Virus record (IMG/VR): IMGVR_UViG_2563366853_000009
Span: 1 to 21,248 of that record
Strand: one strand, 5' to 3'
Source: a virus
Lineage: Duplodnaviria > Heunggongvirae > Uroviricota > Caudoviricetes
Length of the DNA stretch: 21,248 nt
Shown: positions 1 to 20,835 of the stretch, one piece after another
Layout of the letters: each line of letters starts with the position of its first letter
Position numbering within the stretch: the stretch's first letter is position 1
Made by a program: the position numbers and the translations under genes
Notes under the pieces: model-generated
Database searches by the model: none
Told to the model about the DNA's origin: nothing
Seen by the model: only the letters and a program-made list of their open reading frames with translations

Positions 1-552
1 TTAGCCCATTATTTTTCTATACGCCTCTGCAGCCTGCTCCGGCGTTAAGTTGGTAATTTCTGTTCTGACTGGTCCTCCATCAGCGCCAGTCACTTCATTT
101 TTGACGTTGTCTTTAAACGCCTGAACAGAAACATGACGCCCAAGCAACTCAAGGTTTTTAACCTTATCAGGCCATTTGATTTTCTTCAGAAGTGCGGCGC
201 TATCTGCGGATACCATCTCCACGACATCCATTCCTGATAGCGTTGTGCGCCATACCTTAGGCCAGTCTTTAATGGGCTTTAGCTCACCGTTTTGCAGGAG
301 AATGTCGAGCACATCCATCTGGTCGATTTCAATAAGGCGATTAAGTACATATTCTGCATTAATACCAACAAGATCATTGCGTTGCGCTTTCAGTTCGGCG
401 ATTCTTAACTTGATGTCAGGTTTTGACAGGTTTTCGGATGCGGTACGGTTAGCTGTCTTTGCGCTGTACCCCGCCCGAATAGCCGCTTGCGTGGCGTTTA
501 AATCGATGAGGTACTCGCGACAGAACATCTCTTGTTTGTCGGTGAGTGCCAT
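1..552 (-). CDS. Terminase small subunit (Terminase_2/P27-like family)
   Basis: Complete 183-aa ORF; N-terminal MALTDKQEMFCREYLIDLNATQAAIRAGYS motif typical of this terS family; sits downstream of lysis cassette on the late strand. Confidence 0.75.
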   Translation of the reverse strand: MALTDKQEMFCREYLIDLNATQAAIRAGYSAKTANRTASENLSKPDIKLRIAELKAQRNDLVGINAEYVLNRLIEIDQMDVLDILLQNGELKPIKDWPKVWRTTLSGMDVVEMVSADSAALLKKIKWPDKVKNLELLGRHVSVQAFKDNVKNEVTGADGGPVRTEITNLTPEQAAEAYRKIMG

Positions 553-576
553 GACAAAGTCTCAATTGGATTGAAA

Positions 577-849
577 ATGAGTGATTTATTACTAATTAAA
601 AACTGGTTAATTGACCATCATGCACTATCGATTTTCTTTGGGTTTTTATCGGCTGGGTTATGGATCAAATCAGCAACAGCCAAAGTCAAAACAGGTAGAA
701 GCACCGTTGTAGCAATTACATTTGATGATCCCAAAAAAAATGTAGATCTTCACGAATTTTTCTTAACTGCGCGGTTACAGTCTAAATATAACTCATATGC
801 AGCTTTCGCTGCTGCTGTAACTGTGATTTTGCAAATGGCTGGCTATTAG
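577..849 (+). CDS. Hypothetical small hydrophobic protein, oriented opposite to the late operon (bor-like position)
   Basis: ATG at 577 in frame with track ORF 532..849; hydrophobic stretch ALSIFFGFLSAGLWI; AT-rich; weak RBS. Confidence 0.3.
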   Translation: MSDLLLIKNWLIDHHALSIFFGFLSAGLWIKSATAKVKTGRSTVVAITFDDPKKNVDLHEFFLTARLQSKYNSYAAFAAAVTVILQMAGY

Positions 850-937
850 AAAACCTTAACCAGGATATTATTTACCTTTATCAATATCAGTTAACGACTC
901 AAAGTGTAATGGTTCCACATTCTCCTAATGGAGTTAT

Positions 938-1051
938 TTACTCGCCCGTCTCGGTAGCCAGCTGCATAAAGCCATTAACCAGCTCAGGCTGACGTCGTGA
1001 CGTCTTGCCCGTAAAGGTTTCGCCTGTTTGGGTTTGGTAGATGTCGGACAT
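938..1051 (-). CDS. Small ORF (37 aa) MSDIYQTQTGETFTGKTSRRQPELVNGFMQLATETGE
   Basis: ATG at 1051-1049 preceded by AAAGAGG with 6-nt spacer; below the 60-aa track cutoff, found by reading the minus strand. Confidence 0.25.
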   Translation of the reverse strand: MSDIYQTQTGETFTGKTSRRQPELVNGFMQLATETGE

Positions 1052-1165
1052 TGAGAGCCTCTTTATCTGCTTGTGGGGATATATGGTTAATTATCCTCTG
1101 TAGGGGATACTGCCATCACAATGGAGAGAATCATCGTAATGGCAATAAAAACCGCCCATAGGCAG

Positions 1166-1573
1166 TTAATCTGAAAGACCAAATTTCTTTTTTGCGTAGG
1201 ATTTTAGAAGCTCTACACCAACATCTTTCAATACCGATAATGGTTGATCGCTAATTGTTTTTAGCTTCTTAAAAACATCCTTTTGTTGAAGGGTTTCTGC
1301 AAACTCTTGGCCTGATGACGTGAGTCTTACATTGGCTGGCCATTCACGGATTTCATTAAGCCCAATAGTAAGTCCTAATTTCTTAGGATCGCCTATTTCT
1401 AGAAAATGGTTACTGATATAACCTCTCTCAATCAATTGGTAGTAATGAAAGAGTCCTTTATCGCTGCTTATTTCGTATCCAGCTTTTTTAAGGTCATTAG
1501 CTGATATCAATGGTCCGCCAGCCTTAATAAAGACCCCTAACATTCCCTTCAAGTATTCCAGATCGGTCTGCAT
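1166..1573 (-). CDS. Hypothetical protein, AT-rich moron between Rz and terS
   Basis: 135-aa ORF on late strand directly after Rz; AT-rich relative to flanking phage genes; no recognisable family. Confidence 0.5.
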   Translation of the reverse strand: MQTDLEYLKGMLGVFIKAGGPLISANDLKKAGYEISSDKGLFHYYQLIERGYISNHFLEIGDPKKLGLTIGLNEIREWPANVRLTSSGQEFAETLQQKDVFKKLKTISDQPLSVLKDVGVELLKSYAKKKFGLSD

Positions 1574-1631
1574 AAATTACCTCCATCCTGAGAAATAGAG
1601 ATAATATTACCCTTAAAATTCTTCATTAACA

Positions 1632-2093
1632 CTAATTTGAACACTGCTCTTTGATGTAGTCCTGCAAGTAGCCGACCTGCTTCGTCACTGTGACGATTCG
1701 CTCTCTGAGGGTGAAATAATCCCGTTCAGCGGAGTCAGTAAGTCCGGGGCTGGAAGCATCGCCCAAGCTGCCGGTGCCGGTCTTTCCGCTCGCTGGACAT
1801 CGGGCATTGAAGTGCAGCCCACACTTGCCAGTGCGAACACAACGCTGCAGATCATCAAGCTGCTTTTTCGCATCAGCTAGTTCTCCGGTGTATTTAGCAT
1901 CGAGTGCATCAGCATCACGCTGGCGCTGCTGCATGTCAGTAATTGCCGCGTTCGCCAGCTTCAGTTCTCTGGCATTTTTGTCGCGCTGGGCTTTGTAGGT
2001 AATGGCGTTATCACGGTAATGATTAACAGCCCATGACAGGCAGACGATGATGCAGATAACCAAAGCGGAGATAATCGCGGTGACTCTGCTCAT
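1632..2093 (-). CDS. Rz: Rz i-spanin
   Basis: 153 aa, N-terminal TM segment, coiled-coil-like body; start overlaps R stop (ATGA); contains embedded Rz1 frame. Confidence 0.85.
1685..1873 (-). CDS. Rz1: Rz1 o-spanin lipoprotein, embedded in Rz in +1 frame
   Basis: 62 aa with lipobox LASVGC, proline-rich segment and [10 protein letters not shown] motif matching lambda Rz1. Confidence 0.75.
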
Positions 2094-2566
2094 ACCTCAA
2101 TCTCTCTGACCGTTCCGCCAGCTTTTTTAAATCGGGCAATCAGGTCACCGATTTTATGTTCATACTGACCGTAACCTGCACCAGGTAACGACGCCCAGAT
2201 ATTGCTGCAACGGTCGATTGCCTGACGAATACTGCCGCGGTCAATCATCGGTAAAGCACCACGCTCTTTAATCTGCTGCAGAGCTACAGCGTCCTGGCTT
2301 TCTGGAGAAAAATCTTTCAGGCCAAGCTGTTTACGGTAAGCATCCCACCAGCGTGAAAGAAGCTGGTAACGTCCGGCGGCTGTTGATTTGAGTTTGGGGT
2401 TTAGCGTGACAAGTTTGCGGGGGTGATCGGAGTAATCAGTGAACAGTTCGCCACCAACAATAACATCATAACCGTGGTTACGTGTCGGTTGTCGCCCGTT
2501 ATCCGTTCCTTCTGACCATGCCACCATATCCAGGAAAGCTTTACGCTGTGAATTTAGTGCCTGCAT
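2090..2566 (-). CDS. R: Endolysin, lambda R-type lytic transglycosylase
   Basis: 158 aa; near-identical over most of its length to lambda R as recalled ([19 protein letters not shown] ... GGTVREI). Confidence 0.9.
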
Positions 2567-2569
2567 AAA

Positions 2570-2911
2570 TTACTCCTTCGATCTACCAAATTTGTTACCG
2601 ATTACTCGCATTGCAGCCCCACGAATAGCATCGACACCGATCAGCCCCACGCCACCACCAATGGCAACAGAAAGCGATTTAGGCCATCCGACATACTCAA
2701 GAGCGGATGCAAAGGTCAGCGTCAGAGCGCCACATAGCAAAATCTCGAGCGTTTTTCGCTTCCAGCCACCACCACCGCCAAAATAGGCGATGCGCAAACC
2801 AGCCATAACGATCGACATAATCACTGCGCCCAGCGGTGTGTCTCCACGCCACCAACTTTGTAAGAGTTCCAGTAAGTCAGGCCAGGAATGAGGGACATTG
2901 TGCATTTTCAT
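2570..2911 (-). CDS. S: Class I holin, lambda S-like, with dual-start motif (Met-Lys-Met)
   Basis: ATG-AAA-ATG at 2911-2903 preceded by GGAGGTG; in-frame GTG further upstream at 2920; C-terminus similar to lambda S. Confidence 0.8.
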   Translation of the reverse strand: MKMHNVPHSWPDLLELLQSWWRGDTPLGAVIMSIVMAGLRIAYFGGGGGWKRKTLEILLCGALTLTFASALEYVGWPKSLSVAIGGGVGLIGVDAIRGAAMRVIGNKFGRSKE

Positions 2912-3009
2912 AAGCCTCACCTCCGAAAGTTCGGATGGTGCTAAATGTAAGATTCAGGCTCTCTGGCTTGCTCACAAGAAGTCGAGGATGTTTCCGGAGC
3001 CTAACAACG

Positions 3010-3407: not shown

Positions 3408-3623
3408 GTTTTGATCGCCATTAACGGGTATTCCGTTCCCGCTACGCCCCTCACCAACCTCAGGGGCGCTTTCATAGCGCTCCATCGCAATAAACGCGGC
3501 AGCGATGCAATGCCCCAAATTTTCAAAATCATCCACCCCCGGGTTAGCCCGAGCCACAATGAACTGACCCAGTGTGATTTTGGCCTGAGATCGGGAATCA
3601 GAAGATAATTCATAAAATTTCAT
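3393..3623 (-). CDS. Hypothetical small protein (76 aa), convergent and 3'-overlapping with 3129..3407
   Basis: ATG at 3623 with GGAG 7 nt upstream; terminator hairpin immediately upstream. Confidence 0.35.
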   Translation of the reverse strand: MKFYELSSDSRSQAKITLGQFIVARANPGVDDFENLGHCIAAAFIAMERYESAPEVGEGRSGNGIPVNGDQNSLLD

Positions 3624-3635
3624 GGGTGTTCTCCA

Positions 3636-3665
3636 GAAACAACAAAACCCGCTCAATGGCGGGTT
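3636..3665 (-). terminator. Rho-independent terminator downstream of ORF6N gene
   Basis: Minus-strand AACCCGC-CAUUGA-GCGGGUU followed by UUGUUGUUUC. Confidence 0.45.
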
Positions 3666-3760
3666 CTGGTAAAGTTCATGCGCTTGATTCGCCTCGCGAT
3701 ACAGCTTTGCGAAGCGTACTGGAATTGAAGCAGTTTATGGCTAAAATTGCAAGAACTTTT

Positions 3761-4372
3761 TTAAAGCTGCATCAGCCTTTCCACCAGTTTATCTCTGCGA
3801 ACAACAAACCAACCATTGGCTCTCGCCAGTTCCAGCCATGACTCAAGGGAAATAACAATATCATCATCCCGCAACTGAATTGTGGAAACAGTGACACCGC
3901 CTTGCTGATAACAGAGAACTCGCGTGTCGTAACTTTTCTGGCATGAAACTGGCGCTGACGGATCCTTTTGTCTGAAATAGCAGTCTTCCAGTCTTTCGAA
4001 CACATCCCACGCCTGATCGGTTTCGAGCATTTTGGCATGACGGGCTGCTCCGCGTTCTGTCCAGAGTATGAGGGAGCGGGCTTTCGGGGAAATTTGTAAC
4101 CCTCTTAAAGATGGTTGCAAATTTTGTGAGTTACTTAAAGTAACCCGCAAATTTTGTGAGTAGTTTAAAGCTACCCGCAATTCTTTAAGGTCATTACCAA
4201 CAACTTTGAAAAAGTGTTTCCCTTCAACGAAGCGTACTTTGTTCTCATGATGATTCTGGCGAATACGCACCGGCTCAGTGCCGTAAAGCTGCGCCAAAAG
4301 TTCGGTGGTAATAACAGGAATCTGGTTATGGGTGATCGGGGAGAGAGTTTCAACAGAAATTTGAGTTGTCAT
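3761..4372 (-). CDS. ORF6N/KilA-N-like (antirepressor-type) domain protein with internal tandem repeat
   Basis: 203 aa; N-terminal region matches the ORF6N pattern as recalled (RF-EG-HFFK...SPKARSLILWTERGAARHAKML); repeat inserted within the domain. Confidence 0.6.
   Translation of the reverse strand: MTTQISVETLSPITHNQIPVITTELLAQLYGTEPVRIRQNHHENKVRFVEGKHFFKVVGNDLKELRVALNYSQNLRVTLSNSQNLQPSLRGLQISPKARSLILWTERGAARHAKMLETDQAWDVFERLEDCYFRQKDPSAPVSCQKSYDTRVLCYQQGGVTVSTIQLRDDDIVISLESWLELARANGWFVVRRDKLVERLMQL
4093..4180. repeat. Tandem ~30-bp repeat inside the ORF6N gene, each unit with an internal palindrome
   Basis: Two full units AAATTTTGTGAGTNNNTTAAAGNNACCCGCA plus a partial; encodes LRVALNYSQN/LRVTLSNSQN. 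Confidence 0.7.
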
Positions 4373-4530
4373 AATGACGCCCTCTGGTGGTTTCTTAATA
4401 ACTCACCACCGACGACGCCAATCGTCTGGTGGTGAACTGTGCAGGGTTGGCGTAACCGGGAAACCGACCGGCGCGGATCTCTCCGCCCCCACACAGCCCA
4501 CCATAATTCAGATGTGCGCGTGCATACGAC

Positions 4531-4555
4531 AATAAAAAACACGCTCGCGGCGTGT
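4531..4555 (-). terminator. tR'-like terminator about 90 nt downstream of Q
   Basis: Minus-strand ACACGC-CGCGA-GCGUGU followed by UUUUUUAUU. Confidence 0.45.
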
Positions 4556-4616
4556 ATCTGTCGCGGTCTCTATCCAGGACGCCAATCCCGACGCCAGATT
4601 TTGCTGGCGCGTGAGG

Positions 4617-4646
4617 AATATAGCCCCGGATAACAGATTGAGTCAA
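4617..4646 (-). promoter_or_regulatory. Candidate late promoter (pR'-like) overlapping Q stop codon
   Basis: Minus-strand TTGACT, about 18-nt spacer, TATATT; -35 overlaps the Q TGA. Confidence 0.35.
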
Positions 4647-6654: not shown

Positions 6655-6810
6655 TTACTCCTCAGGTTCGTAAGCTGTGAAGACAGAGACCTCCGTCTGG
6701 CCGGTTCGGATTCGTACCTCGCAGAGGTCTTTCCTCGTTACCAGTGCCGTCACTATGACGGTTAAACAGATGACGATCAGGGCGATTAACATCGCCTTTT
6801 GCTGCTTCAT
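6655..6810 (-). CDS. hok: Hok/Gef-family type I toxin
   Basis: 51 aa MKQQKAMLIALIVICLTVIVTALVTRKDLCEVRIRTGQTEV... matches Hok family (single TM, conserved C-E-x-R); in-frame upstream extension to 6867. Confidence 0.85.
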   Translation of the reverse strand: MKQQKAMLIALIVICLTVIVTALVTRKDLCEVRIRTGQTEVSVFTAYEPEE

Positions 6811-7062
6811 AGCCTGCTTCTCCTTGCCTTTCGGCACGTAAGAGGCTAACCTACGTTTGTATAGCATAGATTGGGCCTCAGATTAATGTTAAGCGTCTTG
6901 CCGGACGCGTAATGTTAACTGGGGCTTTTCTCTATCTGCCTTTGGTGTTCATGCCTGAGGCAGATAGCCTCAAGCACCCGCTGTCATTCTACTTAAGTTA
7001 GGTAAGATTTTCTATGGTATTTCTCCACGTTCCATAAATACGAACGTGTATTATCATTTTTA

Positions 7063-18707: not shown

Positions 18708-18902
18708 ATGAGATATGACGATGTTAAACCATGTCCGTTTTGTGGTTGTCCATCAGTAACGGTGAAAGCCATTTCAGGATATTACCGCGCAAAGTGTAAC
18801 GGATGCGAATCCCGAACCGGCTATAGTGGAAGTGAAAAAGAAGCACTCGAAAGATGGAATAAACGAACTACTGGAAATAATAATGGAGGTGTTCATGTAT
18901 AA
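18708..18902 (+). CDS. ralR: RalR (Lar) restriction-alleviation protein / type I toxin
   Basis: 64 aa MRYDDVKPCPFCGCPSVTVKAISGYYRAKCNGCESRTGY...; alternative start at 18696. Confidence 0.8.
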   Translation: MRYDDVKPCPFCGCPSVTVKAISGYYRAKCNGCESRTGYSGSEKEALERWNKRTTGNNNGGVHV

Positions 18903-19044
18903 AATTACTGCCACTATTGAAAAGGAAGGTGGCACTCCTACTAACTGGACAAGATATTCAAAATCTAAATTAACGAAATCAGAATGCGAAAAAAAATGCT
19001 CTCAGGGAAAAAAGAAGCAGGCGTTTCCAGAGAGCAGAAAGTAA
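18895..19044 (+). CDS. ydaC: YdaC-like small protein
   Basis: ATG at 18895 with GGAGGTG RBS; MYKITATIEKEGGTPTNWTRY...; overlaps ralR end. Confidence 0.5.
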   Translation: MYKITATIEKEGGTPTNWTRYSKSKLTKSECEKKCSQGKKKQAFPESRK

Positions 19045-19140
19045 AGCTGATAAATTTTAATTGCGAGAAACTTCTGTCCTCGTGAGTTGCATTATATACA
19101 AATTAGAACTTCATAGCTGATTATTAAAAATCAACCACAT

Positions 19141-20611: not shown

Positions 20612-20646
20612 AAAACGTTTGCAACTGATTGATTTTAAATACAATT

Positions 20647-20749
20647 AAAAAAAGACCGAATACGATTCCTGTATTCGGTCCAGGGAAATGGCTCTTGGGA
20701 GAGAGCCGTGCGCTAAAAGTTGGCATTAATGCAGGCTTAGTTGCCTTGC
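20647..20749 (-). ncRNA. sdsR: SdsR (RyeB) small RNA with its intrinsic terminator
   Basis: Minus-strand GCAAGGCAACUAAGCCUGCAUUAAUGCC...GACCGAAUACAGGAAUCGUAUUCGGUC-U7 matches recalled SdsR; CTATTCT sigmaS-type -10 just upstream. Confidence 0.6.
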
Positions 20750-20835
20750 TCTTTAAGAATAGATGACGACGCCAGGTTTTCCAGTTTGCGTGCAAAATGG
20801 TCAATAAAAAGCGTGGTGGTCATCAGCTTAAATGT

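Follow-up and report, generated by a model that had tools for sequence, protein, structure and literature searches.

A predicted winged-helix DUF2513 protein encoded between the lysis and packaging genes of a lambdoid prophage

Among lambdoid phages, lambda bor and lom and HK97 gp15 are known as late-operon morons. Like them, the 135-codon gene described here, which we call X135, is an AT-rich, dispensable and exchanged gene that lies between late genes and is followed by a terminator. It differs from them in that no promoter was detected for it, its terminator belongs to the shared backbone and it has no homology to them, and in that its product is predicted to be a cytoplasmic winged-helix (wHTH) protein, not a membrane protein or lipoprotein.

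A second point of comparison is the Tai/Ati system of phage phi80. Lambdoid phages have a recognised immunity hotspot ahead of the packaging module, which is the main location of their Tai genes; phi80 has there tai, on the opposite strand, and the counter-defence gene ati, which is co-oriented with the late genes, and the two form a non-contiguous operon (PMC11364771). According to the phi80 annotation, the tai/ati region lies between Rz1 and cos. X135 occupies the same slot, between Rz/Rz1 and the packaging genes, where small genes co-oriented with late transcription are interrupted by opposite-strand genes. Unlike in phi80, however, X135, the neighbouring 90-aa gene and the orf69 remnant have no detectable Tai/Ati homology, and BLASTP and tblastn comparisons of phi80 orf62–66 (including TaiEcA, orf63, and AtiEcA, orf64) with the window, by which we mean the whole 21,248-nt stretch of viral DNA analysed, gave no significant match. 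Nor are X135 and the opposite-strand gene genetically linked; each occurs independently of the other in other prophages. One further phi80 gene, orf66, was considered as a homolog of X135 on account of a common LTSxGQxFA motif, but was rejected at an hhalign probability of 2.7%.

The third is a protein family, Pfam DUF2513 (PF10711), to which YjcQ (PF09639) is related. Its members, as X135 is predicted to be, are single-domain proteins of ~135 aa composed of a wHTH and C-terminal helices. Our literature search found no paper on DUF2513 or PF10711, and nothing relevant on YjcQ.

An AT-rich cargo gene in a variable late-gene slot

X135 is a genuine gene that is under purifying selection and has a foreign, AT-rich composition. 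Its GC content is 37.7% (GC3 33%), compared with 46.9% in the small terminase gene (TerS), 49.7% in R, 51.6% in S, 52.8% in Rz and 47.0% in the whole window. The earlier note had singled out an AT-rich 135-aa reading frame co-oriented with late transcription, and both observations hold, X135 sharing the minus strand with the holin, endolysin, Rz/Rz1 and small terminase genes (Table 1). A search of 5.8 billion proteins returned 39 clusters of homologs with 45–98% identity to X135, which come from Escherichia, Citrobacter, Klebsiella, Hafnia, Serratia, Pantoea and Pectobacterium and are 134–140 aa long in 37 cases; the GC content of the homologs is 36.5–41%, whatever the host. Calculated against homologs with 79–84% nucleotide identity, dN/dS is 0.04–0.09. 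A nonsense allele, S86* (TCA to TAA), truncates X135 in two lineages, E. coli 300709 and one IMG/VR contig, which indicates that the gene is dispensable for prophage maintenance.

Table 1 Features of the window from the small terminase gene to the holin gene
Feature	Position	Strand	Remarks
Small terminase subunit (TerS)	1–552	-	Pfam Terminase_2; downstream slot boundary
Second AT-rich cassette	554–939	+	36.6% GC; homology break
90-aa gene	577–849	+	PHROG 14357 (E 7e-62); hydrophobic segments; immediately upstream of TerS
Remnant gene	938–1051	-	37 aa; 5' half of a conserved 66–69-aa late-operon backbone gene, PHROG 6581
H2, imperfect hairpin	1108–1147	-	Follows T1 and precedes the remnant gene; arms of 16 nt, loop of 8 nt
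T1, intrinsic-terminator-like hairpin	1150–1167	-	7-bp stem AACTGCC/GGCGGTT with one U-G pair, loop TATG
X135 CDS	1166–1573	-	ATG start, 135 aa; divergent DUF2513 / PHROG 585 member by profile comparison
Spacer, Rz stop to X135 start	1574–1631	-	58 nt
Rz i-spanin	1632–2093	-	Pfam Phage_lysis; upstream slot boundary
Rz1 o-spanin	1685–1873	-	Embedded in Rz
Endolysin (R)	2090–2566	-	
Lambda-type holin (S)	2570–2920	-	Pfam Phage_holin_3_1

The lysis genes and TerS are annotated likewise in related E. coli prophages. In the window, the interval between Rz and TerS measures 1079 nt and has a GC content of 38.6%. X135 had been placed between Rz and terminase, and the slot is right, but the gene does not abut the terminase: two small genes intervene. 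The first of these is a remnant of a PHROG 6581 gene which, at 66–69 aa, accompanies the two downstream hairpins T1 and H2 in many lambdoid prophages. Because homology to related loci halts at position 940 and resumes at 553, the stretch from 554 to 939 constitutes a second, independent cassette, and its insertion truncated the neighbouring 66–69-aa gene at a recombination junction near position 940. The cassette contains the second small gene, the opposite-strand 90-aa gene, for which the analogy to tai of phi80 suggests a candidate role in immunity or exclusion, with expression from the prophage. A 31-aa ORF with a TTG start at 1087–1182, which has no family and lies inside the terminator/hairpin sequence, was treated as spurious.

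Our slot survey covered 80 IMG/VR loci encoding the same TerS family, 47 of which have a recognisable Rz upstream; in these 47 loci the gap between Rz and TerS ranges from 442 to 3068 nt and holds many different sets of ORFs. X135 is present in 4 of the 47, other genes standing at the same position, and most prophages with a 97–99% identical TerS are without it. Of 5426 complete E. coli genomes, 12 have the gene and six others have, on phage-plasmids of ~48 kb, a DUF2513 gene that is 56% identical; among GenBank phage records, a relative is encoded in just 4. Of the moron slot claimed in the earlier note, what stands is thus an AT-rich, dispensable cargo gene in a hypervariable post-spanin slot; a moron in the strict sense is not supported.

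The position of the gene recurs in other phages. At 58 loci with members of the X135 subfamily, the gene lies downstream of and co-oriented with lysozyme/Rz and upstream of the packaging module, and the packaging modules that accompany the family are of the Terminase_2, Nu1, DUF1441 and ParB-like types. Distant DUF2513 genes also follow the lysis genes in a Nu1-type lambdoid prophage, in Klebsiella phage ST846-OXA48phi9.2, and in the ~48-kb phage-plasmids and Yersinia phage vB_YpM_39. Since some DUF2513 relatives sit in early regions (near xis/int in phage Chlobot, after dnaB in a Serratia prophage), late timing is not universal for the family, and still other DUF2513 genes lie outside phages. 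No conserved partner gene for X135 was found across the neighbourhoods of the subfamily and of the distant homologs. Proteins of ~305 aa encoded next to distant homologs were considered as partners and rejected, being mutually unrelated and absent from the window.

Rfam searches of the whole window at gathering thresholds, and of positions 500–1700 at E ≤ 5, detected nothing in or adjoining X135. Elsewhere, on the minus strand, they identified a C4 antisense RNA (4425–4508), its a1/b1 target (4571–4623) and isrK (4534–4610), which lie upstream of an ORF6N/antirepressor-like gene (3761–4372); the region 4425–4623 resembles the RNA-controlled antirepressor modules of P1/P7 type, here in a lambdoid prophage. 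Also on the minus strand are a sok antitoxin RNA (6805–6979) and the RalA antitoxin sRNA (RalR/RalA, rac-like; 18901–19081). An overlapping SraC/RyeA-SdsR/RyeB pair at 20643–20787 (+/-) probably marks the host junction of the prophage.

Family membership and predicted fold

No family had been recognised for X135 at the outset, a statement that is now superseded. Residues 1–133 of X135 match the HMM of PHROG 585, a phage protein family without assigned function, over profile positions 1–127 of 128 (E 1.1e-26, 94.7 bits). The Pfam DUF2513 HMM scores 15.9 bits against X135 (E 0.017, residues 36–110), which is under the gathering score of 29.6, as is characteristic of the X135 subfamily, and the closest relatives have no entry in the precomputed Pfam field. 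An X135 subfamily profile retrieves 282 representative clusters, and three results connect these proteins to DUF2513: PF10711 is matched by 71 of 92 aligned wider relatives; nearly all matches in a second database search with the wider profile carry PF10711 and are ~135 aa long; and an hhalign comparison of the X135 subfamily with 25 bona fide DUF2513 proteins aligned 129 columns, covering residues 1–133, at 99.8% (E 1.5e-28). On this profile evidence X135 can therefore be classed as a divergent, full-length member of the DUF2513 superfamily that belongs to an Enterobacterales prophage subfamily. X135 also has the DUF2513 motif positions H43, G67, R83-L-T and G88, but it has Q89 in place of the His in RLTxxGHDF, a motif of the family.

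Other searches with X135 were negative. There was no match in NCBIfam, none to any defence-system component in PADLOC (PADLOC-DB v2) at E ≤ 1, and none to the Pfam MarR/PadR HMMs at E ≤ 0.1; searching the PDB by sequence with both profiles gave only noise (E ≥ 0.27). Homology to a structural or packaging protein, which was looked for by profile and fold searches, was found in none of Pfam, PHROG, PADLOC, NCBIfam, the PDB or the fold searches.

In the AlphaFold2 model, residues 1–96 of X135 form a winged helix resembling those of MarR, PadR and TubR, followed by conserved helices at residues 98–130, which have low model confidence (pLDDT 50–62). No match better than E 1e-3 was obtained in the BFVD viral fold library. 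The predicted domain shares the wHTH fold with the dimeric winged-helix proteins MarR, PadR, Sso10a and TubR, but it differs from them in its low identity (10–20%), its poor global superposition (TM 0.35–0.45) and the lack of any sequence-level match; the X135 domain is moreover acidic, and its DNA binding and dimerisation are putative. The acidity is a property of the family, with a median pI of 5.2–5.4 (5.6 for the X135 wHTH), which is unexpected for a strong non-specific DNA binder and neither proves nor excludes DNA binding. Conservation is uneven along the protein: the wing (residues 55–82) is the most variable part, at 38% mean pairwise identity, and the helix at 113–135 is the most conserved, at 79%. 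Judging from the model, X135 would be a soluble, cytoplasmic wHTH protein of 15 kDa. With its wHTH and variable wing it may bind either nucleic acid or a protein partner, and we conjecture that the conserved C-terminal helices could serve for dimerisation or for docking to a partner.

Transcription of X135 and the downstream hairpins

X135 is probably transcribed with the late genes. Transcription as part of the late operon is preferred because the gene is on the strand of S, R, Rz and TerS, starts after a gap of 58 nt, is preceded by a strong Shine-Dalgarno sequence (GGAGG at 1580–1584, 6 nt before the ATG) and lacks a promoter-like site at four loci. A scan of the sense strand ahead of X135, which is a crude consensus test, detected no sigma-70-like site in the window or in the homologous loci L029, L019 and L030; AT-rich DNA can hide weak or non-sigma-70 promoters, so that some expression in the lysogen may occur. 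The best -35 element found by hand matches at 2–3 of 6 positions, and there is no terminator between Rz and X135. The protein would then be produced from the Q-antiterminated late transcript in the course of lytic growth, along with the proteins for lysis and packaging, and such a transcript would be expected to read through T1 as well.

An imperfect 12-bp palindrome, GGTAATATTATC, is located at 1600–1611, 27 nt upstream of the ATG, and overlaps the -10-like hexamers TAATAT/TATTAT. A relative with 82% identity has it as GGTAAGCTTATC, but a third variant has not kept it. From its sequence, GGTAATATTATC is a candidate operator only.

A weak terminator-like hairpin had been noticed at about 1100–1160, and it proved to be real, with T1 as its counterpart and H2 in addition. 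T1 begins within the X135 stop codon, is followed by TTTATTG and a T-run down to 1147, and is a weakened copy of the canonical CCGCC-N4-GGCGG-T6-7 terminator of the relatives. The T1/H2 region folds better than shuffled sequences (z -3.1), and both hairpins are kept behind X135 alleles that are only 58% identical. Both are also found 3' of unrelated cargo genes (66, 70, 110 and 161 aa) at loci without X135, and they are therefore part of the shared backbone and not of the cassette. Across 14 loci, 81.5% of the H2 cells are paired, and T1 and H2 together are 86% paired with covariation no greater than in shuffled alignments, so that a structured RNA beyond sequence conservation is unsupported. 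H2 may mark a boundary of recombination, or act as an RNA processing site or as an attenuator. Its homologous sites were seen, independently of the preceding cargo gene, at loci L003, L004, L019, L022, L029, L031, L060, L061, L083 and L125.

These results bear directly on whether X135 is a classical moron, that is, an autonomous unit active in the repressed prophage, whose product, a winged-helix transcription factor, would alter host expression or fitness (lysogenic conversion). The low GC content, the variable slot and the placement of T1 directly after the stop codon are as expected of such a unit, as is the predicted wHTH regulator fold, and GGTAATATTATC could be an autoregulated promoter/operator. 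Against this, no sigma-70-like site is seen in the window and three divergent loci, where the best -35 matches so poorly; X135 follows Rz so closely, with no terminator in between; and T1 is common to other cargo genes. The strict form of the moron claim, with its own promoter and terminator, is not supported by these observations, and we consider lysogenic conversion by an autonomous X135 unit unlikely.

A possible role in conflict and the alternatives

Hints of a function come from distant DUF2513 relatives. A metagenomic protein of 278 aa (P0105; locus L167, 355–1191) consists of a complete DUF2513 module fused to a CAP12/Pycsar-type TIR domain, the latter matched by PF10137 and by the PADLOC models PDC-S35 and PycTIR; it is the sole domain fusion identified among the multi-domain matches examined from 150 listed. 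In Aeromonas piscicola, a DUF2513 gene lies between two Mrr_cat nuclease genes (locus L149, 3126–5456), one of whose products resembles the PDC-S02 and PD-T7-1 models, and the three may possibly form a defence cluster. In Serratia, a protein of 305 aa with a weak TIR match is encoded just before the homolog, the Marinobacter homolog comes after a protein with a sub-threshold DUF4145/HEPN match and is next to ccdAB, and Vibrio homologs are found among arrays of small same-strand ORFs. The Rz–TerS slot itself holds TaiEcA homologs (30–33% identity) on the opposite strand at two loci of relatives with this TerS family, L110 (~2290–2745) and L137 (~3464–3898). The TIR, Mrr and HEPN neighbours, an association noted by hand at a small number of loci, with no statistical null, and the presence of Tai/Ati in the slot together make a role in phage–host or phage–phage conflict plausible.

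Two further observations were made at these loci. The Aeromonas piscicola cluster is on an integrated element and adjoins a PAAR/Tae4 type VI effector pair, and TaiEcA and the Marinobacter DUF2513 neighbour both show, by eye, Rx4H (HEPN-like) motifs.

The explanation that we favour, with moderate confidence, is that X135 is a single-gene accessory cassette of a lambdoid prophage, encoding a late-expressed DUF2513 wHTH protein that acts in conflict. X135 would function in phage–host or phage–phage conflict, as a counter-defence factor or in the regulation of counter-defence, and not in lysis, packaging or classical lysogenic conversion.

Phage-encoded orphan antitoxins, such as T4 Dmd and pseudo-ToxI, are known, and a narrower possibility is that X135 is, in their manner, a free-standing phage copy of a DUF2513 module which bacteria pair with toxic effectors. 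Produced late, or by early leakage, it would neutralise a host system, by heterodimerisation through its conserved C-terminal helix or by competing for the ligand of that system. The DUF2513-TIR fusion spans the whole X135-like module, one homolog lies between nucleases of the Mrr type, other homologs have neighbours weakly like TIR or HEPN proteins, and the C-terminal helix is conserved as against the variable wing, all of which would suit direct neutralisation, as would the fact that the co-oriented gene in the phi80 slot is the counter-defence gene ati (PMC11364771). But the loci are few and lack enrichment statistics, late expression is awkward timing for such a function, X135 has no Ati homology and no cognate host system was identified, and we regard this specific mechanism as quite unlikely. 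A bolder version is that X135 is a new type of counter-defence protein, an orphan DUF2513 module mimicking a sensor/regulator domain that in bacteria is joined with effectors of the TIR, Mrr-nuclease or HEPN kind; via the conserved C-terminal helix it would disarm systems of this sort, and the hypervariable wing would track the specificity of the system targeted. We put it forward as a speculative and quite improbable idea.

X135 might instead protect the lysogen from other phages, as a prophage-encoded defence or superinfection-exclusion factor. It is a rare, patchily distributed cargo gene in the immunity hotspot upstream of the packaging module (PMC11364771), and Tai homologs are present in the slot of its relatives. 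However, X135 is late-oriented and without a detectable promoter, Tai-type genes in the slot being on the opposite strand, and it is a lone 15-kDa wHTH protein with no effector domain and no PADLOC match; we consider protection of the lysogen very unlikely. Least credible of all, to the point of being extremely improbable, is an accessory DNA-binding factor that serves packaging or the control of late genes, for instance one that helps terminase at pac/cos or tunes read-through of T1/H2: in at least 4 unrelated phage backbones the gene stands directly ahead of the packaging genes, the predicted fold is a DNA-binding one and conserved hairpins lie immediately downstream, but X135 is absent from most prophages with 97–99% identical TerS, it accompanies varied packaging modules, the hairpins occur without it, nonsense alleles exist and homologs sit in early regions.

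Taken by itself, X135 is one more uncharacterised cargo gene in a known accessory/immunity hotspot of lambdoid phages. It also offers a tangible way into DUF2513, a family that comprises at least 282 clusters at 50% identity and has no published function. The family is approachable, with its winged helix, conserved C-terminal helix and variable wing, its recurrence at the lysis–packaging junction of unrelated phages, and its occasional fusion or adjacency to TIR, Mrr and HEPN-type effectors. If the orphan-module idea were true, the entire DUF2513 family would count among the parts of bacterial immune systems, a role not previously recognised.
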